A stretch of DNA of 64,000 nucleotides, taken from the NCBI GenBank assembly GCA_044349155.1, contig JBIKRQ010000001.1:6418-70417 (forward strand), read 5' to 3'. The text below continues a report on this DNA, generated by a model with database tools. The letters are not shown here. This DNA comes from Myxococcota bacterium. GTDB lineage: Bacteria; Myxococcota; UBA727; VGSZ01.

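Follow-up and report, generated by a model that had tools for sequence, protein, structure and literature searches.

Reading frame and codon composition at the junction

The Gly-rich gene (window positions 53739-54935) follows the 9,916-aa giant protein's ORF in the same frame, and only the TAA stop and four codons lie between them (53724-53741). The same-frame arrangement recurs in the orthologous locus L025 (9986-10003) and in the contig of protein P0001. The two ORFs are in different frames in three other orthologous loci (L028, L033, and L034), and we therefore rejected read-through fusion as a conserved feature. At its 3' end, the Gly-rich gene overlaps by 10 nt the start of a PpiC-type rotamase gene (54926-55657), whose product carries a lipoprotein signal (VPVKRAALLALLAAVGC followed by SGSGG).

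In codon composition, the Gly-rich gene is an outlier, with a GC3 of 0.54-0.68; the giant ORF, the rotamase gene, and the second giant frame downstream all have values of 0.8-0.9. The fall in GC3 begins upstream of the Gly-rich gene, within the last ~60 codons of the giant ORF's tail. It is possible that the tail end and its partner, the Gly-rich gene, were acquired jointly; codon usage tied to expression is also a possible explanation.

Start of the giant ORF and its upstream region

The mechanically assigned TTG start of the giant ORF (23976-24250 region) is probably placed too far upstream. The first ~60 codons are rich in Arg, Cys, and Ser and are not protein-like, and a signal-peptide-like stretch follows them. 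A tRNA gene (23167-23238, forward strand; Rfam RF00005, 65 bits) lies ~740 nt 5' of the first possible start. Further upstream, a forward-strand ORF (8670-11126) encodes a zinc ribbon (Zn_ribbon_4/5) and C-terminal TPR repeats. No Pfam match was obtained for the remaining long ORFs 5' of the giant gene, which may be high-GC shadow ORFs.

Terminal Cys loop and tail-like arrays

Within the terminal Cys loop of the giant protein, an N-G-[ST] tripeptide (aa 9904-9909, nt about 53685-53702) is kept in all orthologous tails (CVNGSN, CINGTT, and CVNGTS). This tripeptide probably forms a turn; unlike the bacterial N-glycosylation sequon, the tail loop has no acidic residue at -2. Long arrays of 22-23-aa units were also observed in unrelated, unannotated proteins (P0122 and P0123; locus L038). 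Their sequences, 'GLGTLTLSGQPVTVRY...' and 'ATPAVVRYVGV...', are weakly similar to the units of the tail, with E values of 1e-7 and 3e-6; neither a Pfam family nor an informative gene context was found for these array proteins.

Variants and neighbors of the tail/Gly-rich pair

Gly-rich homologues occur as tandem paralogues in two loci (L014 3454-6339 and L036 5819-8158), with no tail protein upstream of those in L014. In one Verrucomicrobial homologue (L019 about 9100-11182), a Kelch-like beta-propeller with repeats of the type 'WEYNGTxWT' is inserted C-terminal to the GSTGADG motif at the protein's N-terminus.

A second giant frame (55627-64000, forward strand) encodes at least 2,791 aa and continues past the window end. 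As it carries a signal peptide, ~22 DxDxDG motifs, and Glucodextran_B, CarboxypepD_reg, Big_5, and DUF6531 domains, its product is probably an RHS/YD-type toxin protein. At least five loci, belonging to different lineages (L004, L031/L032, L036, L037, and the window), have RHS/YD-repeat giants (DUF6531, RHS_repeat, and TEN_YD-shell) directly adjoining the tail/Gly-rich pair.

Cohesin domains were found in the gene following the pair, and Dockerin_1 domains in either the tail proteins or the adjoining RHS protein; the regions concerned are L003 11113-16758, L036 8184-9092, and the tail proteins of L003, L018, L029, L035, and L036. The presence of both domains at tail/Gly-rich loci suggests a cellulosome-like assembly in Verrucomicrobiota and Sumerlaeota.
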